Of a DNA stretch of 64,000 bases, positions 25,240 to 38,809 are shown piece by piece (positions within the stretch are counted from its first letter, which is position 1; every line of letters begins with the position of its first letter). Source of the stretch: Blastocatellia bacterium (lineage in GTDB: Bacteria > Acidobacteriota > Blastocatellia > UBA7656); assembly GCA_035275065.1 (NCBI GenBank), contig DATENM010000023.1:71215-135214 (forward strand), written 5' to 3'. Under the pieces are notes generated by a model, which did no database searches, was not told the origin of the DNA, and saw only the letters and a program-made list of their open reading frames with translations. The translations under genes and the position numbers were made by a program.

Positions 25240-26571
25240 TTAGGGCAGGTCGGTGCTGCGCAGAATCTTGTAACGATTCATCTTTCTATAAAGAGTCATC
25301 CTTGACCAGTGGAGCTTGTCGGCAGCGCGCGTCTTGTTCCAGTTCGTTGCGACAAGCGCCTGGATCATAAGCTCTCGCTCGTTGGGGTTGGCAGAGGTTA
25401 TCTCTGATATGTGTTTCTTGACCTGCTCCGGAAGATCGACGATATCTATTATCCTGCCCTGAAGATTGACGAAGATTGCTTCGACCACGTTCTTAAGCTC
25501 CCGGACATTCCCCGGCCAGCTATGCGACATAAGTAAATTCATGGCTTCGCCGGTAAATCCTTCAACGTGCATGCTAAACGATTGGTTCATTGCCTTGACG
25601 TAATAGGTAAGCAGCTTTGGGATGTCTTCGGTGCGATCTTTCAGCGATGGCAGTTGCATGCGAATCACATTCAGGCGGTAGTAGAGGTCCTGGCGGAAGC
25701 GTTTCTGCTCGACCGCTGCATCGAGATCCTGATTAGTGGCCGCAAGGATTCGCACACTCAAAGGCAAGGGCTTGTTGCTTCCCAATCTGTAAATCTCCTT
25801 GCCGTCTAAGGCGCGCAGCAGCTTGGCCTGGACTGAGGAACTGATGTCTCCGATCTCGTCGAAAAAGATCGTCCCCGTATTGGCGAGCGCCAGCTTGCCT
25901 TGGTAAGCGTATTGCGCTCCGGTAAAAGCTCCCTTCTCATGCCCGAAGAGCTCGCTTTCGAGCAACGAATCGGGAATGGCTGCACTGTTCAAGCAGACAA
26001 AAGGCTTGTTGGAGCGGGGGCTGTTTGCGTGAATCAACTCGGCTACGAGCTCTTTGCCCGTGCCCGTTTCGCCCGTAATCAAGACATTGCTTGTCCACTT
26101 GCGCAATTTGTTAATGAGAGCCCGCAAGTCACAAACCGCCGGGCTATTACCGATCAGCCGCTCGCCCCATCGTAATGCGCAACTCTGCTCAATTTTGGCG
26201 ATGGGTTCTCTATCGCCGGAAAGTAACTCCGCGAGGATCGTTATGATCTGTTGATCGGAAAGTGGAGGTTTAAGATAACGATTTACTCCGGCGTTCAGGG
26301 CCTCAATCGCCATCTCCTCGGAACTCTCGGCCACGGCCAATACGATAGGGACTTCCATTTTCAACGCACGGACCTGGCGGACGAATTCGAGCGCTGGCTT
26401 GGCCTTGCCCGGCGGCACGCTGATAATAGCCACGTCGGGTATCAAGGAAGAGAGGAGCTTCAACGCGTCGGCGCAATCCGAGGAATGCAATACCTGAAAG
26501 CCTTGCCGTGAAATCAGGCTTGCTATGACCGGGCGTGCAGATTCAATGACCATGATTTTGGAATCAGTCAT
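25240..26571 (-). CDS. Sigma-54-dependent transcriptional regulator (NtrC family enhancer-binding protein) with an atypical receiver domain
   Basis: Walker A is GETGTGKE and the GAFTGA motif is present, with a C-terminal HTH. The N-terminal receiver-like domain has Ser where the phospho-accepting Asp is expected (PDVAIISVPPG). Confidence 0.85.
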   Translation of the reverse strand: MTDSKIMVIESARPVIASLISRQGFQVLHSSDCADALKLLSSLIPDVAIISVPPGKAKPALEFVRQVRALKMEVPIVLAVAESSEEMAIEALNAGVNRYLKPPLSDQQIITILAELLSGDREPIAKIEQSCALRWGERLIGNSPAVCDLRALINKLRKWTSNVLITGETGTGKELVAELIHANSPRSNKPFVCLNSAAIPDSLLESELFGHEKGAFTGAQYAYQGKLALANTGTIFFDEIGDISSSVQAKLLRALDGKEIYRLGSNKPLPLSVRILAATNQDLDAAVEQKRFRQDLYYRLNVIRMQLPSLKDRTEDIPKLLTYYVKAMNQSFSMHVEGFTGEAMNLLMSHSWPGNVRELKNVVEAIFVNLQGRIIDIVDLPEQVKKHISEITSANPNERELMIQALVATNWNKTRAADKLHWSRMTLYRKMNRYKILRSTDLP

Positions 26572-26589
26572 GACAGGCTTCTCCTCTCC

Positions 26590-27113
26590 ATGGCCGAAGA
26601 CCTCCGCCGCAGAGGCGAGTTGGACTTACCCGAATGCTTGATTGACGGCGCCTTCATGGTCGCCAAAAAAGGGGCGGCAAAGTCGGAAAGACCAGGCGGG
26701 GCAAGGGGACTACGCGAGTGGCAGACTCTGCCGGTCTCGCTGTCGCCGCCTACACTCAATCTGCTAGCCCGTATGGGGTCACCCTTGTGACCAAAACTCT
26801 CGTTGAACGCTTTATCGCTGAGCAGCCTGAAGGATGGATCGGCGATAAAGCCTGCGACTCTGACCCGCTGGATGCGGAGCTTGAGGCGCTCGACATTGAA
26901 ATGATCGCGCCGCACAAGAGCAACCGCCAGAAGGCGAAGACGCAAGACGGGCGGAGGTTGCGGCGCTACGGGCGGCGCGGGAAAGCCGAGCGGCTGTTTG
27001 CGTGGTTGCAAAACCACCGGCGGGGATTGGGGCGTTATGCGTATCATGATGCGAACCACTTGGGCTTCGCCCATCTCGGCTGCGTCCTGATCTTACTCAG
27101 GGCTTATTTTTGA
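26590..27113 (+). mobile_element. Degraded IS5-family (IS427-group, DDE_Tnp_1) transposase remnant; frameshifted and N-terminally truncated
   Basis: Two frames carry transposase-like segments: ...DGAFMVAKKGAAK... and ...VERFIAEQPEGWIGDKACDSD...IAPHKSNRQ...GKAERLFAWLQNHRR...HLGFAHLGCVLILLRAY. There is no intact ORF. It is followed by a lower-GC tract at 27114-27470. Confidence 0.6.
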
Positions 27114-29712: not shown

Positions 29713-29849
29713 TGTGACCACGACGGGTCTTTTCAGATCGTTTCCTCACCATAGGAAGCATTAGCGGGGGGCAAAGTTGACACAATGCCTGTTCGTGGTT
29801 GCTGGATCACGCACGGATTCAATCAACGATACCTGAAGGAGTAATCAGT

Positions 29850-30374
29850 ATGAGACGAAAAACTTTCTTGCTTATTGTAGTTGCAATCGTGGTCGGCGTT
29901 GTCGCTTACAAGGCCCCCGCGTCTGGACAAACTGATGGGGAGGCCGCACCAGTCTTCGTAACTGAAATCCCCGCCGGATACCGCGACTGGAGGTTCATCT
30001 CTGTCGCACACGAGGAAGGCAACCTCAACAGTTTCGCTTCCGTTTTGGGCAACGACATCGCGATCAAGGCCTACCGCAAAGGCAAGCTTCCATTCCCAGA
30101 CGGCGCCATTATTGCAGCCCTACACTACCGCTTCGTCCCGTCTGCGGAAAACAATAAAGCTTTTGGGCGTGATCAATCGTTCGTCGCCGGGGCGCCGACG
30201 AACGTGCAGTTTATGATCAAGAACTCGAAGAAGTATGCCGCTACTGGAGGTTGGGGGTTCGGTCACTTCAACAGCGACGGCAAACCAGTTGACGACGCAT
30301 TTATGAAGACTTGCTTTCCTTGTCACCAGAAGATGAAAGAGAGCGATCTGGTCTTCACCCGTTACGCGCCTTGA
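29850..30374 (+). CDS. Cytochrome P460-family haem protein with a signal peptide (paralog 1)
   Basis: MRRKTFLLIVVAIV... is a signal peptide. A C-terminal CFPCH (CXXCH) motif is followed by ...DLVFTRYAP. It is paralogous to 41172-41738. Confidence 0.7.
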   Translation: MRRKTFLLIVVAIVVGVVAYKAPASGQTDGEAAPVFVTEIPAGYRDWRFISVAHEEGNLNSFASVLGNDIAIKAYRKGKLPFPDGAIIAALHYRFVPSAENNKAFGRDQSFVAGAPTNVQFMIKNSKKYAATGGWGFGHFNSDGKPVDDAFMKTCFPCHQKMKESDLVFTRYAP

Positions 30375-30585
30375 TACGCGGAACGACCGAAGAAAAGAAT
30401 GAGGCGATGGCCGCGCACAAACCGCCAATCAAGGATTCAATTGCTTTCCGGTGCATCAAGCATATGAATGCCCCTAATAGGATGACTATAAAAACGAGCA
30501 GCGTCAGAAAGAATCTAACCTTGTGCCGCCCCGGTCGCTTTGCACCTTGATCGTACCAACCCGGCGAGATGAAATGATAAGTCAT
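30355..30585 (-). CDS. Small hypothetical membrane protein (two hydrophobic segments)
   Basis: 76-aa ORF with two hydrophobic stretches (FFLTLLVFIVILLGAFICLM and LIGGLCAAIASFFSSVV) and a weak RBS. It could be a shadow ORF. Confidence 0.25.
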   Translation of the reverse strand: MTYHFISPGWYDQGAKRPGRHKVRFFLTLLVFIVILLGAFICLMHRKAIESLIGGLCAAIASFFSSVVPRIKARNG

Positions 30586-30697
30586 CCACAGCAGCGGCGC
30601 GTACCCGGTATAAGAGTGAGCCCTGAACGTCTGGACGCCATGAGAAATCCTCGGCTATAGTGCCTTCATCGCGCTACACTACAAGCTGAGGTCTCAA

Positions 30698-31930
30698 GTG
30701 GCGCTGGCACAGCACACACCGAAAGCCTTCCGCAGTTTTCAAGCCCGCCAGTCTGGCGACCTGGACTCGGCTGAGTGCTGGCGCTTGCTGAGGCCAAATG
30801 CAAGCCTCGCGACGAGCCCCTCAACGCACCCCCGTGTGACTGCAATCATCAATTCAATTTCCGCACTGGGCAAGCTCAGATGGCCAAGCGTCCTGCTGCT
30901 AGGCTGCTGCTTGCTGCTCAACGGTTGCCGCCCGCAATCGGGCAGCGTCACTCCCTCCATCGAGCTCACCAGGATTCCTCCGGCAGAAGCGGGCCGCATG
31001 GACAAGCTCGACATTATTCAAGGGCGGGTGACCGGCGCCCGTCCCGGGCAGCAGATCGTCTTATATGCCAAGGCGGGGGCATGGTGGTTACAACCCCTGT
31101 CGAACATCCCCTTCACAAAGATTCAGGCAGACTCAAGCTGGATCAACTCAACTCACCTTGGGTCGGCTTATGCGGCGCTGCTAGTCGAGCCAGGGTATCA
31201 GCCCCGCACCACGATGAGTGCGCTGCCAGAGCCGGGCGGTGATGTGGCGGCTGTAGTCATGGCGGAAGGCGCAACATCCGGGCCAAGCACCTCTCCTCCG
31301 CTTTCCTTCAGCGGCTATGAGTGGCGTGTACGCAGTGCGCCAAGCAGCCGCGGCGATACCATGAATCTCTACGACCCGGCCAATGCTTGGACTGACGCCG
31401 ACGGGGCGCTGCATCTCCGCGTCGCGAAGCAGAGTGGCAAATGGACGTGCGCGGAGGTGACCCTCACGCGTAGTCTTGGCTACGGCACTTATTCTTTCGT
31501 CGTGCGTGATACATCACAATTTGAGCCGGCGGTCGTTTTAGGCATGTACACCTGGGACTACGCCGGCGACGATCAGAACAACCGTGAGATGGATATAGAG
31601 ATCAGCCGCTGGGGCGATCCGACCAGCAAGAATGCGCAATATAATATCCAGCCTTTTTTTGTGCCGGCTAACGTAGCTCGCTTTACAACGCCCAGCGGAA
31701 TGCTCACTCATTCATTCCGCTGGGAGCCGGGAAGAGTAGCTTTCAGAACCGTTCGCGGGGCGATAAACGATCCTCGCTCTGATGTCGTCGGCGAACATGT
31801 CTTTACGTCGGGCGTTCCTTCTCCCGGTGTGGCATCGGTACGAATGGCGCTTTATGTCTACGGCAAGACCGATAACCCGGTGCAGAATGGCGCCGAGGTG
31901 GTCATCGAGAAATTTGAATACCTTCCGTGA
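30698..31930 (+). CDS. Lipoprotein with an N-terminal sensor-like domain and a C-terminal GH16-like (ExDxE) glucanase domain
   Basis: A lipobox LLLNGC lies at about residue 80, so the true start is likely downstream of 30698. The following ~110-aa domain is shared with the kinase at 35171. The C-terminus has EMDIEISRWGD, a GH16-style ExDxE motif. Confidence 0.5.
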   Translation: MALAQHTPKAFRSFQARQSGDLDSAECWRLLRPNASLATSPSTHPRVTAIINSISALGKLRWPSVLLLGCCLLLNGCRPQSGSVTPSIELTRIPPAEAGRMDKLDIIQGRVTGARPGQQIVLYAKAGAWWLQPLSNIPFTKIQADSSWINSTHLGSAYAALLVEPGYQPRTTMSALPEPGGDVAAVVMAEGATSGPSTSPPLSFSGYEWRVRSAPSSRGDTMNLYDPANAWTDADGALHLRVAKQSGKWTCAEVTLTRSLGYGTYSFVVRDTSQFEPAVVLGMYTWDYAGDDQNNREMDIEISRWGDPTSKNAQYNIQPFFVPANVARFTTPSGMLTHSFRWEPGRVAFRTVRGAINDPRSDVVGEHVFTSGVPSPGVASVRMALYVYGKTDNPVQNGAEVVIEKFEYLP

Positions 31931-34900
31931 CTGGAACATAGAAGCTCGCTGGCCATTCAGGTGGCTGGTGGCGGGGCTGATCATGGTCTCTTTTGCGGCT
32001 AGCACGCGGGCCTTAGATCCTAATCGGGCGATGTCCGACTACGTGCGTGACCGATGGGTCAACGAACAGGGATTTCCGGGCGGGCCTGTCTACGCCATTA
32101 CGCAAACCGCCGATGGGTATCTCTGGGTCGGCACGGAGAGGGGGCTGGTTCGCTTCGACGGATTAAGCTTCCGCCTGTTCGATCATACGAACTCTGCCGC
32201 GCTTCCGGCTGGTCCCATTCTCGACCTGATGGCAGACGTTGACGGAAGCCTCTGGATACGACCGCAGAGCCGGAATATGCTGCGTTACCAAGACGGAGTC
32301 TTTCAAGATGTCATGGCTGACCTCGACCCGGCGCGCCCAGGGGTCACGGCAATGTGTAGAGGCCCGCGTGGCGAAGCGCTGTTTGCGGTGCGCGGCTCGG
32401 GCATCTTCAGGGATGACGGTGGAAGATTTGTAAAGCTGGCCAGCACGGCTGAACATTCTAACTGGCTGGTCATCTCCCTGGCGGAGATGGCCGATGGCAA
32501 AGTCTGGGTAGGAACCAGAGATGCCGGCCTCTTTTCTATGAGCGATGGCCAGCTTGTCGCCTTGACGAATGGGGTGCCTGACAAAAAGATCAATTGTCTT
32601 CTGGCGGCTGGGGGTCGTGAATTGTGGGTCGCCACTGACAGTGGCATCGTGCGACAGAGCGGCGACGCGCCGGCGATGGTTCGCGGCACGGGCTCGCTCG
32701 ATCAAACGCAGGCCCTTGCAATGCTCAGCGACCGCCAGTCGAACATCTGGATCGGCACCAGCAACGGACTGTTGCGGGTCAACGCCAGCGGGGCGGCTTC
32801 ACTGGAAGCAAACGACCGCCGTTCGACCGGGGCTGTGAACACGATTTTTGAAGACCGCGAAGGCAATCTCTGGGTCGGAACGACGCAAGGTCTTGAGCGC
32901 CTGCGTGACACAGCTTTTATGACCTATGCGGTTTCGAGCGACTCTGCGTCACAGGGGAATGGTGCCATTTACGTTGACGGCGATGGCCGCACCTGGTTTG
33001 CCCCTTCGAGCGGCGGGCTCTTTTGGCAGCAGGGCGGACAGACGGGACAGGTGAAGAACGCCGGACTTGACCGAGACGAAATCTATTCGCTCGCGGGCAG
33101 TGCAGGCGAGTTGTGGGTAGGCCGTCGGCGAGGCGGGCTGACCCGGCTCAGGTACAACGGGAGTTCCTTCACGGCTGAGACCTATACGCGGGCCGGCGGA
33201 CTCGCTCAAGACAGCGTCTACGCCGTTCATCAGAGTCGCGACGGCAGCGTCTGGGCGGGAACCGTCAGCAGCGGCCTCAGCCGGCTGAAGGACGGCAAAT
33301 TCATCACCTATACAACCGCACAAGGTCTGCCCTCGAACTCTATAACCTCGATCCTGGAAAGCTCCGACGGGAGCATGTGGTTCGGGACGGCGAACGGATT
33401 GTGTTGGTTATCACATGATCGCTGGGCAGTCTATACGGACCTGGATGGCCTGCCACCTGGAAACATCAACTGTCTGATGGAAGATTCCAGCGGCATGATC
33501 TGGATCGGCACCGACAACGGGATTGCGATTCTCAGTGACGGCGACATTCAAGTTCCTCGTGAAGTGCCCGAAGCCTTACATGCAACGATATTGGGATTAG
33601 CCGAGGATCAGAATGGGCGGCTCTGGATCGCGACGACTAATCATGTATTGCGAGTTGACCGCGACCGGATACTGAGCGGCGTGATCGTCGAAACCGACAT
33701 ACGAGAGTTCGGTCTTGCCGACGGGTTACGCAGTGTCGGAGGAGTAAGGCGCCACCGGTCGGTCATCAGGGACGCGCTCGGACGCATCTGGCTGTCTACC
33801 GGAAGCGGGCTTTCGGTCGTTGATCCGCGGCAGGTGGCAGACCGTTCAACCCCCGCTCTGGTCCGCATCGAAGGGGTGACGGCGGATGGCAGCGCCGTTG
33901 ATCTTCATGGCGCGCTACATATTTCAAGCGCCCGCCAAAGGATCATCTTCAGCTATGCGGGCCTGAGCCTCACGGTGCCTGATCGCGTCAGGTACAAGTT
34001 TAAGCTGGATAGCTTCGATCAAAACTGGAGCGAGCCGGTCGCCAGCCGCGAGGCCGTCTACACGAACCTCGACCCCGGCCCCTATCGCTTTCGGGTCATG
34101 GCAAGCAACAGCGACGGACTCTGGAATAGTGCGGAATCAATCATCCAAATCGAGATTGATCCGGTATTCTGGCAGACCTGGTGGTTTCGCCTCTCAGTCT
34201 TGATGTCTATCGCGCTGGCCGTACTCGTCTTTTACCGCTTGCGCCTGCATCATCTAGCCAAACAGTTGAACCTGCGGTTTGAAGAGCGGCTCGCCGAGCG
34301 CACGCGCGTTGCTCAAGACTTGCACGACACCTTGCTGCAAGGGTTCTTGAGCGCGTCGATGCAGCTCCACGTCGCCGCCGATCATTTGCCCGAAGGGTCG
34401 GCGGCAAAGCCGCTAGTCAATCGCGTGCTCGACCTGATGCGGCAAGTGATCGAGGAGGGGCGGACGGCGCTGAAAGGTCTGCGTTCGTCTGATCGCGGCA
34501 TTCACGATCTCGCCCAGTCATTCTCCGACATTCAGCAGGAACTCGCCCTCGAAGCGCGAATAGATTATCGCGTCAGCGTCGAAGGGCGTCCCAGGCCCTT
34601 ACACCCTGTCATCCGCGATGAAGTCTACCGCATCGGTCGCGAAGCCGTGGTCAATGCGTTTCGTCACTCCCGTGCCGACACCATCGAAGTTGTGCTCGAA
34701 TACGCGTCGAAACAGTTAAGAATGCACATCCGCGATAACGGCTGTGGGATTGATCCGCAGGTGCTCAACACAGGGCGCGAAGGGCACTGGGGACTTTCAG
34801 GCATGCGCGAGCGGGCCGAAGAGATTGGTGCGAGGCTGAGACTCTTTAGCGCCGCCGACGCCGGTACGGAAGTCGAACTCCTCATCCCCGGCCATATCGC

Positions 34901-35000
34901 CTTTGAAACTTTGCCCTCTGACCGCCGCCGGTGGGTCGCCAGATTGATTGCGCTAAAAACAAGGCCGGAAAAGGCAAAAGCCAAACGGCAAGGAAAGTAG
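31887..35000 (+). CDS. Sensor histidine kinase with a periplasmic beta-propeller (Reg_prop / Y_Y_Y) sensor, one TM segment, HisKA_3 and HATPase_c; no receiver domain
   Basis: It has repeated ...LW(V/I)GT..GL.R... propeller motifs, a TM segment WWFRLSVLMSIALAVLVFY, the HisKA_3 motif ERTRVAQDLHDTLLQG and a C-terminal ATPase domain. The start is uncertain, with candidates from 31782 to 31983. Confidence 0.7.
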   Translation: MAPRWSSRNLNTFRDWNIEARWPFRWLVAGLIMVSFAASTRALDPNRAMSDYVRDRWVNEQGFPGGPVYAITQTADGYLWVGTERGLVRFDGLSFRLFDHTNSAALPAGPILDLMADVDGSLWIRPQSRNMLRYQDGVFQDVMADLDPARPGVTAMCRGPRGEALFAVRGSGIFRDDGGRFVKLASTAEHSNWLVISLAEMADGKVWVGTRDAGLFSMSDGQLVALTNGVPDKKINCLLAAGGRELWVATDSGIVRQSGDAPAMVRGTGSLDQTQALAMLSDRQSNIWIGTSNGLLRVNASGAASLEANDRRSTGAVNTIFEDREGNLWVGTTQGLERLRDTAFMTYAVSSDSASQGNGAIYVDGDGRTWFAPSSGGLFWQQGGQTGQVKNAGLDRDEIYSLAGSAGELWVGRRRGGLTRLRYNGSSFTAETYTRAGGLAQDSVYAVHQSRDGSVWAGTVSSGLSRLKDGKFITYTTAQGLPSNSITSILESSDGSMWFGTANGLCWLSHDRWAVYTDLDGLPPGNINCLMEDSSGMIWIGTDNGIAILSDGDIQVPREVPEALHATILGLAEDQNGRLWIATTNHVLRVDRDRILSGVIVETDIREFGLADGLRSVGGVRRHRSVIRDALGRIWLSTGSGLSVVDPRQVADRSTPALVRIEGVTADGSAVDLHGALHISSARQRIIFSYAGLSLTVPDRVRYKFKLDSFDQNWSEPVASREAVYTNLDPGPYRFRVMASNSDGLWNSAESIIQIEIDPVFWQTWWFRLSVLMSIALAVLVFYRLRLHHLAKQLNLRFEERLAERTRVAQDLHDTLLQGFLSASMQLHVAADHLPEGSAAKPLVNRVLDLMRQVIEEGRTALKGLRSSDRGIHDLAQSFSDIQQELALEARIDYRVSVEGRPRPLHPVIRDEVYRIGREAVVNAFRHSRADTIEVVLEYASKQLRMHIRDNGCGIDPQVLNTGREGHWGLSGMRERAEEIGARLRLFSAADAGTEVELLIPGHIAFETLPSDRRRWVARLIALKTRPEKAKAKRQGK

Positions 35001-35020
35001 AGCCGTGCGGTAAGCCTGAT

Positions 35021-35100
35021 CCACTACCACTTTCGTGTTATTAAAAAATTACTGACTGTAGGGATTCGCTTTTCAGTTGGAACCCATACTCTACGAGAGG
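35021..35100 (+). repeat. Divergent member of the intergenic element family (CTACCAC...AAAAAATTACTGACTGTAGGGATTCGCTTTTC), upstream of the second kinase
   Basis: It shares AAAAAATT.CTG.CT.TAGGGATTCGCTTT with the copy at 37100-37190 and the CTACCAC motif with copies B and C. Confidence 0.5.
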
Positions 35101-35170
35101 ACTGCTGTACCGCTGGAAACAATCTTGTGAGGCTGACAACGACAGCCTGGCTCCTCCGAAAAAAAGAACC

Positions 35171-36445
35171 TTGAGTTCAGAACTGGAAACATCTACGACA
35201 AGCCGTCTCGCCTGGACGGGACTTCTCCTACTGGCCGTTTGCGGCATGTTAGCCGGCGGCTGTCGCACTCGGCAAACGAACGTCGGGCCGTTCATCGAAT
35301 TCACCCGCGTCCCTCTCGCTGAAGAGGGCGGCCCGGACAAACTCGACGTGATCGAAGGGCGCGTCATCGGCGCGCATTCCGAATTGCAGATCGTCCTGTA
35401 TGCTCGTAGCGGCGCGTGGTACGTACAGCCCTTCGCGAATCAGACCTCCACGCAGATTCAGCCCGATTCCAGATGGCGGAGCGCGACGCACCTCGGAACC
35501 GAGTATGCCGCCTTGCTCGTCGAGCCTGGCTATCAACCGCCAACGGTCACGGACGCGCTACCCGGTGAAGGCAACGGAGTAGTTGCTGCGGCAATGGTGA
35601 AAGGCGTACCGGTCTTCTGGCAGCGGTGGTGGTTCCTGTTGTTGTGTGCGCTGGCTGCCATGTCTGCCCTGCTGGCGCTTTACAGCTATCGGCTACACCA
35701 GTCGGCTCGGCGACTGAACCTGCGCGTTGAAGAACGCCTCGCCGAGCGCACACGCGTCGCCCAGGAACTCCACGACACGCTGTTGCAGGGCGTAATCAGC
35801 GCTTCGATGCAACTGCATGTCGCGGTTGATGGCTTGCCCGAAGATTTGCCGGCGCGCGCTTCGCTCACCCATGTCCTGCATGTCCTGGGGCAGGTCCTTG
35901 AAGGAGGCAGGGAGGCGCTGCAACGTCTGCGCTCGTCTGACAGCGCTGACTCACTTGATATCGAACAGGTATTCTCCTGCATCCGGCAGGAGTTCGTCGC
36001 CCGTGAGCAGATCGATTTTCGCGTCACCGTCGAGGGCCGCCCACGGCCCGTGCACCCGATCATTCGCGATGAAATCTACCGCCTCGGTCGTGAAGCCGTA
36101 GCTCATGCGCTGCGCCGCGCGCACGCCGAGCACGTCGAAGTCGCGGTAGAATATAAAGCCAGACACCTGCGCATTGTCATCCGCGACGACGGTCGCGGGA
36201 CAGATGCGCAAGCGCCAGGCTCAGAGAACGACGAGCGACGAGGTTTGCGCAAGCAAGCCGAAGCCTTTGGCGCGCGGCTCAGAGTGCGAGGCCGGCCCGG
36301 CGCCGGAACCCTGGTTGAACTGACGGTTCCAGGCTATGTTGCTTTCCCAGGCCAGCCCGCAAATCGTTCGTTGAGCTGGCTGGCCGGCTTGTATCCGCTA
36401 AACGCCAGACCGGGATTATCGAAACCCGGTAAGGGAGGAGAGTAA
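35171..36445 (+). CDS. Sensor histidine kinase (HisKA_3 / NarX-like) with an N-terminal lipoprotein-type sensor domain shared with 30698-31930
   Basis: It has a lipobox MLAGGC and a sensor domain (FIEFTRVPLAEEGGPDKLDVIEGRVIG...YAALLVEPGYQPP) more than 50% identical to the GH16-like protein. A TM segment, ERTRVAQELHDTLLQG and an ATPase domain follow. Confidence 0.8.
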   Translation: MSSELETSTTSRLAWTGLLLLAVCGMLAGGCRTRQTNVGPFIEFTRVPLAEEGGPDKLDVIEGRVIGAHSELQIVLYARSGAWYVQPFANQTSTQIQPDSRWRSATHLGTEYAALLVEPGYQPPTVTDALPGEGNGVVAAAMVKGVPVFWQRWWFLLLCALAAMSALLALYSYRLHQSARRLNLRVEERLAERTRVAQELHDTLLQGVISASMQLHVAVDGLPEDLPARASLTHVLHVLGQVLEGGREALQRLRSSDSADSLDIEQVFSCIRQEFVAREQIDFRVTVEGRPRPVHPIIRDEIYRLGREAVAHALRRAHAEHVEVAVEYKARHLRIVIRDDGRGTDAQAPGSENDERRGLRKQAEAFGARLRVRGRPGAGTLVELTVPGYVAFPGQPANRSLSWLAGLYPLNARPGLSKPGKGGE

Positions 36446-37075
36446 ATGAGTGACCCGGCAAGCATCCGCGTCTTTAGCGTTGACGACCACCCCCTGCTGC
36501 GCGAGGGGATTGCCGCCATCATCAACAATCAACCGGATATGCAGATGATCGCTCAGGCGGCCACCGGCGGCGAAGCCATTCAACTGTTCCGACAGCATCA
36601 GCCCGACGTGACGCTCCTGGATTTGCGACTCCCCGATATGAGCGGCATTGATGTCTTGATCGCCCTGCGGTCGGAATTCCCCCAGGCGCGCGTCGTCATG
36701 CTGACTACATTCGAAGGCGACGTAGACATACGGCGTTCGCTTGAGGCCGGCGCGCGCGGTTATATGCTCAAGAATATGCCGCCGAAAGATCTGGTCGAAG
36801 CCATCCGCCAGGTACACGCAGGCAAGAAGCGCATCCCGGCGGAGGTGGCGGCCCACCTGACCGAGTTTTTCGGCGACGATGATTTGACCGGGCGCGAGAT
36901 AGATGTCCTGCGGCAGGTCGCCAGCGGCAACCGCAATCGCGAGATCGGCGAACATCTCTTCATCTCTGAAGAGACGGTCAAGGTGCACATCAAGCACATC
37001 ATGGAAAAGCTGGGCGCGAGCGACCGCACCCAGGCGGTGGCCATCGCCGTACGCCGCGGCATCATCCAGTTGTGA
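36446..37075 (+). CDS. NarL/LuxR-family response regulator (receiver plus HTH)
   Basis: Receiver motif: RVFSVDDHPLLREG...DVTLLDLRLPDMSG. LuxR HTH: LTGREIDVLRQVASGNRNREIGEHLFISEETVKVHIKHIMEKLG. Confidence 0.9.
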   Translation: MSDPASIRVFSVDDHPLLREGIAAIINNQPDMQMIAQAATGGEAIQLFRQHQPDVTLLDLRLPDMSGIDVLIALRSEFPQARVVMLTTFEGDVDIRRSLEAGARGYMLKNMPPKDLVEAIRQVHAGKKRIPAEVAAHLTEFFGDDDLTGREIDVLRQVASGNRNREIGEHLFISEETVKVHIKHIMEKLGASDRTQAVAIAVRRGIIQL

Positions 37076-37099
37076 GTGGCCTGCCTGACACAAGGCGCG

Positions 37100-37190
37100 A
37101 TCACGGAAGTGGTATAAAAAAATTCCTGCCTTTAGGGATTCGCTTTCCGTATGGGATGATTAATCTAAAGTAGAGGAGCGCCGCAAGTAC
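37100..37190 (+). repeat. Divergent member of the intergenic element family (GTGGTATAAAAAAATTCCTGCCTTTAGGGATTCGCTTTCC), upstream of DoxX
   Basis: It resembles the core GTGGTAGCAAAAAACCATTCC of copies B and C, and the 35021 copy downstream of that core. Confidence 0.5.
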
Positions 37191-37217
37191 ACCGATGACG
37201 GTCAAGGAGGCCCGGAC

Positions 37218-37643
37218 TTGCAAAGGCTATTTTTCTCTACATTCGCCGGCGGAAAACCCGGCATCGGCTTGCTGCTGTTGCGAGCCGGTGTCGGTTCGGC
37301 CGCCATCACGCAAGGCGGAGTCTATCTGGCCGACCGCAGCAACCTATCGCTTTGGACGTGGGCCATCGGGTTGTTGGCTATCGTCTGCGGCACCTCTCTT
37401 CTCATCGGCTTTCTGACGAAAGCGGCCTGCGTGTTGACGGCACTCGCGAGCATCGCCGTCGCGCTGCCGTGGCTGCCGGCCCCGCCGCTGAGTCTATTCA
37501 ATAGCAAACCGTCGCTCATCTTCGTGAATATCATGGCTGTCGCGATTATTCTGCTCGGGCCGGGAGCGTTTTCGCTCGATGCCCGTCTGTTCGGACGCCG
37601 CGAGATTATCATCCCGCACAATAACCGCTCGCCCAAATGCTGA
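37218..37643 (+). CDS. DoxX-family membrane protein
   Basis: 141 aa and hydrophobic, with a LLLLRAGVG...GPGAFSLDA pattern. Confidence 0.65.
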   Translation: MQRLFFSTFAGGKPGIGLLLLRAGVGSAAITQGGVYLADRSNLSLWTWAIGLLAIVCGTSLLIGFLTKAACVLTALASIAVALPWLPAPPLSLFNSKPSLIFVNIMAVAIILLGPGAFSLDARLFGRREIIIPHNNRSPKC

Positions 37644-37666
37644 TTGTCGTGCCGCCTGAATCGCGG

Positions 37667-37780
37667 CTACCACAATCGGGGTATCTCCATGCCCCACCGA
37701 CAGTGGTAGCAAAAAACCATTCCTTCTCGTGATGTGATCTTCGCTCTGATCCGCCATAGTGTGGGGTAGGGGCCACAGAG
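37667..37780 (+). repeat. Intergenic element copy B, subtype B/C (CTACCACAATC...AGTGGTAGCAAAAAACCATTCCTTCTCGTGATGTGATCTTCGCTCTGATCC), upstream of the alpha/beta hydrolase
   Basis: About 80% identical to copy C over about 110 nt. It has a nested inverted repeat, CTACCAC/GTGGTAG outside and GGGG/CCCC inside. Confidence 0.75.
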
Positions 37781-37804
37781 ACTACGAACAACGAAGGAGG
37801 ACTT

Positions 37805-38809
37805 ATGAGTGGTACAACAACGTCGCAGGCCGAAAGGCCGTTGGATGTCGCTGCCGACCCACGGCTTTCGCGGGGCACGAAGGCATTCTTAGAAGTCTTG
37901 AATTCTGCGGGCGGCCCGCCGCTTGAGGCTTTGCCGCCGCTCGTCGCGCGCGAGGTGCTGGTCAATGCACAGGCATCGGTCTCGGTTGACCTGTCAGGCA
38001 TCGAGGAGTCCGAAAAGACGATCAACGCCGATGGCTACACGATCAAGCTCAACATCGTGCGCCCGGCCGGTGTTAAAGGGCAATTGCCGGTCTTTGTCTT
38101 CATACATGGCGGCGGCTGGGTGTTGGGTGATTACCCGACGCACAAGCGCATGGTTCGTGACCTCGTCGTGCTTTCGGGGATGGCCGCTGTTTTCGTCAAC
38201 TATACGCGCACGCCCGACGCGAAGTATCCGCAGGCGATCAACGAAATCTACGCCGCCACCCGCTGGGTGGCCGAGCACGGCGGCGAGATTGATGTCGACG
38301 GCAAGAACCTGGCCGTCGTTGGCAACAGCGTCGGCGGCAATATGACGGCGGCGACCGCGCTGAAGGCGAAAGAGAATGGCGGCCCGCAAATCAAGCTTCA
38401 CATCATGATGTGGCCGGTGACAGACGCGAACTTCGAGAGAGAGTCATTCAAACAGTTCGGCGAGAAGCGTTTCCTCACGACGCCGTTGATGAAGTGGATG
38501 TGGGACCTCTACACGACTGACCCAAACCAGCGAAAGGAAATCTTCGCATCGCCCTTACAGGCCACAGCGGAGCAGTTGCGAGGCTTGCCGCCGGCGTTGA
38601 TTCAGGTCGCCGAAAGCGACATCTTGCGTGACGAGGGCGAAGCCTACGGGCGCAAGCTGGACGAGGCCGGCGTCGAGGTGACGACGGTGCGCTACAACGG
38701 CATGATTCATGACTTCGGGCTGCTGAATGGTTTGGCAGAAGAACCCGCCGTTCGTTCCCTGTTCAAACATGCGGCGGCGGAGTTGAAGAAATACCTGCGA
38801 CCGGAGTGA
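37805..38809 (+). CDS. Alpha/beta hydrolase, fold-3 (carboxylesterase/lipase-type)
   Basis: HGGGW oxyanion motif (FVFIHGGGWVLGD), a GNSVGG nucleophile elbow, and ...MIHDFG at the C-terminus. Confidence 0.8.
   Translation: MSGTTTSQAERPLDVAADPRLSRGTKAFLEVLNSAGGPPLEALPPLVAREVLVNAQASVSVDLSGIEESEKTINADGYTIKLNIVRPAGVKGQLPVFVFIHGGGWVLGDYPTHKRMVRDLVVLSGMAAVFVNYTRTPDAKYPQAINEIYAATRWVAEHGGEIDVDGKNLAVVGNSVGGNMTAATALKAKENGGPQIKLHIMMWPVTDANFERESFKQFGEKRFLTTPLMKWMWDLYTTDPNQRKEIFASPLQATAEQLRGLPPALIQVAESDILRDEGEAYGRKLDEAGVEVTTVRYNGMIHDFGLLNGLAEEPAVRSLFKHAAAELKKYLRPE

Follow-up and report, generated by a model that had tools for sequence, protein, structure and literature searches.

Signal transducers that display parts of polysaccharide-degrading enzymes outside the membrane have been described in Clostridium thermocellum, where RsgI anti-σI factors act as biomass sensors with CBM3, CBM2, PA14, GH10 or GH5 modules (PMC6852018, PMC10328401). 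Sensors of a different build are found in the hybrid two-component systems (HTCS) of Bacteroides, the Reg_prop+YYY sensor domains of which bind signature oligosaccharides directly, as was shown by isothermal titration calorimetry (PMC3243724). Here we analyse a locus of a soil bacterium of the Blastocatellia, carried on a stretch of 64,000 nucleotides (GenBank assembly GCA_035275065.1, contig DATENM010000023.1, positions 71,215 to 135,214), which is called the window below and provides the numbering of all positions. One extracytoplasmic domain, designated DOM, is shared there by a predicted lipoprotein with a glycoside hydrolase family 16 (GH16)-like domain (gene A) and a HisKA_3-type sensor (gene C). 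Both genes belong to a five-gene envelope signalling operon typical of Acidobacteriota, which occupies 30.7-37.6 kb with all genes co-directional on the + strand (Table 1); gene B encodes a Reg_prop/Y_Y_Y sensor kinase, gene D a NarL-type response regulator and gene E a DoxX-like membrane protein. The first-pass annotation of this DNA considered A and C only, and thereby overlooked kinase B between them, which is conserved across the phylum as the partner of the enzyme.

As in RsgI, an enzyme-type carbohydrate module would be displayed on a signal transducer outside the membrane to sense the polymer under attack, provided that DOM binds glycan. Unlike in RsgI, the transducer is a two-component HisKA_3 sensor and not a proteolytically cleaved anti-sigma factor, the host is a diderm acidobacterium, DOM belongs to no named carbohydrate-binding module (CBM) family, and the sensor stands beside a second, propeller-type kinase and has apparently lost ATP binding. 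The likeness to the HTCS of Bacteroidetes concerns gene B, which has Reg_prop repeats and a Y_Y_Y periplasmic sensor and adjoins an endo-glycanase-like gene, as HTCS genes do in polysaccharide utilisation loci. In contrast to HTCS, the B protein ends after HATPase_c, its dimerisation and histidine phosphotransfer (DHp) domain is of the HisKA_3 type, there is no fused receiver or AraC domain but a separate NarL/GerE regulator, and SusC/SusD genes are not conserved near the operon, the conserved downstream gene being DoxX-like.

The relationship of the A and C proteins was confirmed by BLASTP, which aligned them with 74/138 identities (54%, E 4e-44) from the signal peptides through the lipobox cysteines to ...AAVVMAEG in A and ...AAAMVKG in C. 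Identity is 58% within DOM proper (A residues 83-191, C residues 37-145), so the earlier estimate of a domain of about 110 residues with more than 50% identity held when the alignment was computed. AlphaFold2, supplied with a 56-sequence alignment, predicted an eight-stranded all-β domain with a pLDDT of 94.1 and a pTM of 0.87. According to this model, DOM is an autonomous, confidently folded β-sandwich and not the generic linker for which the shared region might have been taken.

The statement of the first-pass annotation that the domain could not be assigned to a named family is in agreement with our searches. DOM matched no Pfam family up to E 10, its sole hit, Effector_1, being at chance level; NCBIfam and profile and phmmer searches of all PDB sequences gave nothing, and a Foldseek search of the model against the PDB gave nothing below E 1e-3. 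By Pfam, which covers the CBM families held there, and by PDB sequences, DOM falls into no named CBM family, and no description specific to DOM or to the operon was found in these libraries or in the searchable literature. The porphyran-binding CBM of a β-agarase (PDB 8wae) is 15% identical to DOM, which is no sequence-level relationship, and its margin over generic Ig-like domains is small. A porphyran-binding CBM16 is known from a 2024 paper cited in PMC11678492, and 8wae may be this module. A BLAST alignment of B and C had run on into the DOM region and prompted a comparison of DOM with the Y_Y_Y domain of gene B; a diverged Y_Y_Y was rejected by hhalign of the family alignments (probability 0.1%).

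At 32 positions, enzyme-type and kinase-type DOMs carry the same residue with a conservation of 85% or more, and no fixed difference distinguishes the two types; both copies thus appear to be held to the same functional surface. The most conserved stretch is YAALLVEPGY, at consecutive strand positions, and conserved aromatic positions are W47/W48, W66, H71, Y76 and Y85. The lipobox forms LNG/C (A) and AGG/C (C) each deviate from the consensus [LVI][ASTVI][GAS]C at one position. The lipobox cysteine is nevertheless present in 74/74 enzyme-type and 18/18 kinase-type homologues, with G, A or S at −1 in nearly all of them. Because it is kept in all 18 kinase-type proteins, the DOM kinases may have a lipid anchor and cross the membrane once, instead of being ordinary two-helix sensors.

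Among 1.84 billion representative proteins, an exhaustive HMMER search detected 1,859 members of the DOM family. One, two or three DOMs precede the same GH16-like domain, whereas in P0166 three DOMs follow it at the C-terminus; P0086, a 1,650-residue surface protein also carrying Big_5, TSP3 and PKD domains, has the architecture DOM-GH16-DOM x3, and tandem proteins made of DOM alone also occur. DOM is the sole extracytoplasmic domain of HisKA_3, HisKA (P0183, two copies) and PAS-HisKA (P0114) kinases, and three copies were found in a PEGA protein of Patescibacteria (P0210). Variable copy number and position beside a catalytic domain are typical of CBMs and not of linkers. DOM is discretely folded and contiguous with the GH16-like domain in variable number and position, and since this concerns one catalytic family and the domain is also used independently as a sensor input, DOM behaves as CBMs do. 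The DOM repeats of P0210 and P0166, which lie outside the Acidobacteriota-type architecture, are divergent, and each has a conserved Cys pair that the copies of the window do not have. The genomic neighbours of the divergent proteins P0183, P0086 and P0166 were not informative.

Gene C is almost certainly a clean chimera, as judged from the alignments, with the signal peptide, lipobox and DOM coming from an A-type gene and everything from the transmembrane (TM) helix onward from a B-type kinase. C shares 48% identity with B from PVFWQRWWF, where the membrane helix starts, to its C-terminal end (312 residues, E 9e-83), the part upstream matches A, and the switch lies between ...MVKG and VPVFWQ. 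The transmitters of the DOM-kinases (sensors with a DOM input) show a median identity of 47-60% to the operon-type propeller kinases but of 31-42% to the other Reg_prop kinases encoded in those genomes, and they nest within the operon-type Reg_prop kinases in a neighbour-joining tree. The earlier idea of a module co-opted between enzyme and kinase stands as far as modular behaviour and the 32 shared positions are concerned, although the chimeric origin of C from A and B had been missed. The kinase-type DOMs form a single clade in the neighbour-joining tree (18/18) and are 72-85% identical to one another across genomes, whereas their identity to the neighbouring enzyme DOM is 51-61%. Since this places them nearer to their counterparts in other genomes than to the adjacent enzyme copy, the fusion is old and not maintained by ongoing gene conversion; a recent duplication or gene conversion between the DOM copies was rejected on the basis of the same monophyly and identities. 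The ratios of nonsynonymous to synonymous substitution rates (dN/dS) between C and its orthologue in locus L001 were 0.17 for DOM, 0.25 for TM+DHp and 0.26 for the catalytic and ATP-binding (CA) domain (0.20 for the CA domain of B by the same measure), which indicates that gene C is under purifying selection and not in neutral decay.

The previous description of C as a kinase with TM, HisKA_3 and HATPase parts proved to be half right: the domains were confirmed by Pfam (HisKA_3 at 1.2e-10), but the ATP-binding motifs are degenerate, and the C protein of the window probably acts as no kinase. Its HATPase_c match is weak (29.4 bits at a cutoff of 26.4, compared with 48.6 bits for B). The N-box reads REAVAHALRRA where B has REAVVNAFRHS (Asn to His and His to Arg), G1 is kept (DDGRG for DNGCG), and three residues of G2 are gone (RRGL---RKQAE for GLSGMRERAE). 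C thus has neither the N-box Asn, which is a Mg-ATP ligand, nor an intact G2 lid, while the H-box HDTLLQ is kept. Like NarX, C has a HisKA_3 DHp domain with an H-DxxxQ motif, and in HisKA_3 sensors, NarX for example, phosphatase activity depends on the DxxxQ next to the His (PMC3510030). Since a credible ATP site is lost and His-DxxxQ is retained, C is most likely a phosphatase-type protein or a heterodimer partner of B, and an autonomous kinase is unlikely. It should be annotated as a HisKA_3-type sensor and, on its motifs, not be filed as an active kinase.

The loss of ATP-binding motifs follows genomic context. Motifs were surveyed in 78 full-length DOM-kinases, and counted by context for 19 in-operon and 24 stand-alone ones. 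Among the 19 encoded directly downstream of a propeller kinase, three have all ATP motifs intact, eight have lost the N-box Asn (to D, R, S or H) and eight have lost G1/G2 only. In the 24 stand-alone proteins all motifs are intact in 22, the N-box Asn is lost in none and G1/G2 only in two (intact versus not intact, Fisher's exact p 6.7e-7). The HDxxxQ motif is kept in all 19 in-operon DOM-kinases. Parsimony on the neighbour-joining tree requires at least 5-6 independent losses, all within one clade of 22 tips; at least five of the N-box losses are independent, with D, R, S, H and Y as replacement residues.

Some sensor paralogues without kinase activity, such as RetS, which acts on GacS, and DivL, modulate a partner kinase. 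Like these, C looks, by its sequence, to have given up autokinase chemistry and yet kept a signalling role; it differs from RetS and DivL in its presumed partner, the paralogous kinase B of the gene just upstream, and in an input domain taken over from the enzyme of the operon. Two homologous DOM-kinases (L112, 3085-4350; L141, 627-1880) carry Tyr where the phospho-accepting His would stand (YDTLLQ), a form that recalls the DivL pseudokinase.

The partner domain of DOM in A had been called GH16-like on account of an ExDxE motif, and this assignment was borne out. Although the domain alone gave no Pfam match even at E 10, PF00722 of GH16 included, and NCBIfam BglS remained below threshold on A (20.7 bits at a cutoff of 300), single-sequence and profile searches matched 1,3-1,4-β-glucanases of Bacillus and Paenibacillus (E 2e-4 and 4e-6), and EMDIE of A (residues 297-301) aligned with the catalytic EIDIE of lichenases. 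Of the two Glu residues, the first is conserved in 73 and the second in 72 of 74 orthologues of A; the Asp is found in 51 of them and replaced by Asn in 14. The C-terminal domain has the β-jelly-roll (concanavalin-like) fold of GH16. The C-terminal half of A is accordingly regarded as a putative divergent GH16 glycanase which looks catalytically competent. It differs from the GH16 endo-β-glucanases with appended CBMs (lichenases and laminarinases, e.g. PDB 3i4i, 5nbo, 1byh) in being too divergent for PF00722 and predicted to be lipid-anchored, its gene overlaps that of a sensor kinase, and some relatives are without the nucleophile. More than 5,300 homologues of the enzyme family were present in the protein collection searched. 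In the metagenomic proteins P0081 and P0083, which have 2-3 N-terminal DOMs, GKMDIE replaces REMDIE, with Lys for the nucleophile Glu and a shorter preceding loop; relatives of this type may be lectin-like and non-catalytic.

The reading frame of gene A extends back to GTG 30698. The likely start is nevertheless GTG 30836, because a normal 31-residue lipoprotein signal peptide ending LLNG/C (Cys77) then results. The NCBI entry HKQ04354.1, 100% identical to the gene A product, is named 'glycoside hydrolase family 16 protein' and comes from a Blastocatellia metagenome-assembled genome. As this 310-residue protein was called from Met101, it lacks the signal peptide, the lipobox and the first DOM strands; a 410-residue call of the gene A product is also on record (P0341). 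Truncation of the Met101 type probably hides DOM in many database entries.

The recurrence of the enzyme/kinase pairing, which the first-pass annotation had proposed to check, was found in many genomes of Blastocatellia and Pyrinomonadaceae and on metagenome contigs. A scan of one genome per species (GTDB) for YAALLVEPGY yielded 200 relatives, and 80 loci were kept. Their labels are essentially Acidobacteriota (Blastocatellia, Pyrinomonadaceae, Terriglobia, Bryobacterales and Vicinamibacterales), and the core operon is also present in the cultured Tunturiibacter lichenicola MP8S11 (L032). The order of DOM-GH16 lipoprotein, Reg_prop/Y_Y_Y HisKA_3 kinase and NarL regulator occurs in about 65 of the 80 loci; the enzyme and propeller-kinase genes usually overlap, and a response regulator lies downstream of the kinase or kinases in nearly all of them. 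One complete operon of enzyme, propeller kinase and regulator among the 80 lies on a contig labelled Betaproteobacteria (L009, CAJCHZ010000039.1), a label which points to a binning error or lateral transfer.

A DOM-kinase gene between those of the propeller kinase and the regulator was found in the window and in L001, L002, L003, L005, L006, L007, L010, L027, L054 and L063, and after the regulator in L016; all these genome loci are from Blastocatellia or Pyrinomonadaceae. A metagenome scan with the DOM-kinase alignment, in which neighbours were checked within 8 kb, added in-operon cases in L088, L098-L101, L115 and L145 and one placed after the regulator (L089). The commoner arrangement in metagenomes is a DOM-kinase and a regulator alone, with neither enzyme nor propeller kinase within 8 kb, and because this stand-alone pair is common, DOM is taken to work as an autonomous sensor. 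The in-operon DOM-kinase of L003 (14104-14964) is truncated and that of L040 (9866-11134) is interrupted by a stop codon; these lesions could be real gene decay or assembly errors.

A DoxX-like gene lies downstream of the regulator in about 75% of both kinds of locus, propeller-kinase operons (46/62) and DOM-kinase pairs (36/47), and clustering of all flanking open reading frames (ORFs) of the 80 loci showed it to be the only widely conserved neighbour. Gene E is a possible output or target of the system. Its assignment comes from the L022 orthologue, which passes the cutoff for DoxD (7.8e-6), while the match of the window copy is weak (0.025). An extracytoplasmic function (ECF) sigma factor with a resistance-nodulation-division (RND) efflux system is present near the operon in just 14 of the 80 loci.

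What has been said of homology, fold and evolution of DOM and C is nearly certain, whereas for the functional package, i.e. a CBM-like DOM, sensing of polymer and oligomer and a phosphatase-type C, we consider the chances to be about even. DOM would be a CBM-like glycan-binding module which, on A, keeps the GH16-type enzyme on its polysaccharide in the envelope. Kinase B would sense the oligosaccharides freed by the enzyme, as Reg_prop+YYY sensors do in Bacteroides, while DOM on C would report the presence of the polymer itself across the membrane; the polysaccharide that is read is probably the same for enzyme and sensor. B and C would converge on regulator D, for which the adjacent DoxX-like gene is the best candidate target, and C would tune the output of B as a ligand-controlled phosphatase or heterodimer partner. 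The complete scenario is put forward as a tentative proposal. It assumes an envelope glycan-sensing circuit present throughout the phylum Acidobacteriota, in which a GH16-type enzyme with a lipid anchor and a propeller kinase are combined with a NarL regulator and a DoxX-like protein. Within one lineage, DOM would have become fused to a transmitter by recombination in the operon, giving a lipid-anchored single-pass sensor, which beside the parental kinase would repeatedly have lost ATP binding and become a ligand-gated phosphatase or pseudokinase, so that two inputs, polymer and oligomer, act on one regulator.

Several observations weigh against this package. The correlation between context and degeneracy rests on about 5-6 independent events in one clade; since all of these losses fall within the 22 tips, the effective sample is small, though the trend is not a single event. 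The N-box His of C might still allow weak ATP binding. Some multi-DOM relatives have Lys for the GH16 nucleophile, so catalysis is not universal. No carbohydrate-uptake or glycan-utilisation genes are conserved beside the operon among the flanking ORFs of the 80 loci, the conserved downstream gene being DoxX-like. Finally, the conservation of YAALLVEPGY at consecutive strand positions would fit a protein-protein interface equally well.

This last point leads to the main alternative, which we regard as unlikely but worth serious attention, namely that DOM is a protein-protein (dimerisation) module by which the lipoprotein docks on the DOM of C or on the propeller kinase, the enzyme or lectin domain being an accessory co-sensor and the signal being transmitted by complex formation. 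NlpE-CpxA and RcsF are models for such signalling. One domain on both a sensor and an adjacent accessory protein is what would be expected of a duplicated homodimerising module, and besides the invariant strand all 32 conserved positions are the same in both types. The full-length model of A has a pTM of 0.78, which is high for a two-domain protein and hints that DOM packs on another domain, and A and B, which overlap by 44 nucleotides in the window, are inseparable across the phylum. Yet most metagenomic DOM-kinases stand alone with their regulator, neither an enzyme gene nor a propeller-kinase gene being present within 8 kb, DOM is also carried by unrelated kinases and by the Patescibacteria PEGA protein, and its variable copy number and position relative to GH16 are those of CBMs.

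It seems rather improbable that DOM has a passive role as an Ig-like stalk or spacer, left in the kinase as an inert remnant of the fusion, with C being signal-blind or sensing through its membrane helix. The conservation is too strong for such a role: the enzyme and kinase copies still share 51-61% identity although these paralogues split before the divergence of the sampled Blastocatellia, the 32 shared positions are maintained, and dN/dS is 0.15-0.17; moreover, several kinase classes acquired DOM independently of one another as their only periplasmic domain. That gene C is a decaying functionless duplicate and the shared domain a trace of recent local duplication is very improbable, since, even though the ATP motifs are gone in the window and in most in-operon copies and L003 and L040 carry lesions, the 424-codon ORF of C is intact and its stop codon abuts the start codon of the regulator, the kinase-type DOM clade is old, monophyletic and no recent copy of its neighbour, and dN/dS of 0.17 (DOM), 0.25 (DHp) and 0.26 (CA) together with His-DxxxQ in 19/19 in-operon copies led us to reject a pseudogene.

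In soil, Acidobacteriota rank with the most abundant bacteria; to our knowledge, next to nothing has been described of polysaccharide sensing in this phylum. The use of an enzyme-type carbohydrate module on a signal transducer is already known from RsgI and the propeller sensor from the HTCS of Bacteroidetes. What is new is the DOM family, which is in no library searched, its use on a possibly lipid-anchored two-component sensor, the chimera formed within an operon and the context-dependent loss of kinase chemistry. If DOM binds glycan, it founds a new CBM family, and the system becomes the second clear case, beside clostridial RsgI, of a substrate-binding module wired into a transmembrane sensor, here of the two-component type. 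Gene C, with its chimeric origin and an ATP site lost according to context, is a compact case from nature of how shuffling of parts within an operon could create both a new sensor input and a partner that acts as a phosphatase only.

Table 1 Features of the five-gene operon in the window
Feature	Position	Strand	Basis or remark
Gene A, predicted lipoprotein with DOM and GH16-like catalytic domain	30836..31930	+	ORF list; probable start GTG 30836
Lipobox LLNGC of A (Cys77)	30914..30928	+	Cys after hydrophobic stretch in 74/74 orthologues
DOM_A, enzyme copy of the shared β-sandwich (A residues 83-191)	30944..31270	+	
GH16-like β-jelly-roll catalytic domain of A	31283..31927	+	EMDIE motif at 31586-31600
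Gene B, sensor kinase with Reg_prop β-propeller, Y_Y_Y, TM, HisKA_3 and HATPase	31887..35000	+	Pfam
Gene C, lipobox, DOM, TM, HisKA_3 and degenerate HATPase	35171..36445	+	424-codon intact ORF
Lipobox-like LAGGC of C (Cys31)	35249..35263	+	Cys in 18/18 kinase-type homologues, Gly or Ser at −1
DOM_C, kinase copy of the shared β-sandwich (C residues 37-145)	35279..35605	+	
TM segment of C, VFWQRWWFLLLCALAAMSALLALYSY	35612..35689	+	Alignments; junction where homology to A gives way to homology to B
H-box of C with phosphatase motif H-DTLLQ (His201, DxxxQ; residues 201-206)	35771..35788	+	
Degenerate N-box of C, REAVAHALRRA	36089..36121	+	Alignment with REAVVNAFRHS of B
Degenerate G2 box of C, RRGL---RKQAEAFGA	36236..36274	+	3-residue deletion relative to GHWGLSGMRERAEEIGA of B
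Gene D, NarL/LuxR-type response regulator	36446..37075	+	Pfam Response_reg 6.4e-27, GerE 1.1e-20
Gene E, small polytopic DoxX/DoxD-like membrane protein, 141 residues	37218..37643	+	Conserved downstream gene

The genes of the operon are closely packed. The probable start of B, ATG 31887, lies within the 3' end of A, and D begins on the base right after the stop codon of C. Gene B matched Pfam Reg_prop (1.8e-47) and Y_Y_Y (1.1e-15) in addition to HisKA_3 and HATPase_c, and its ATP-binding motifs are intact. A scan of 30300-37900 for promoters and terminators gave sites no more numerous than in shuffled sequence. The region 5' of the operon (25240-26571 on the − strand; 26568-27113; 29799-30374 on the + strand) contains genes for a sigma-54-dependent response regulator (Pfam 1e-65) and a cytochrome P460 (3.3e-35), and a pair of short ORFs in the same stretch resembles, by eye, a putative remnant of a DDE transposase.

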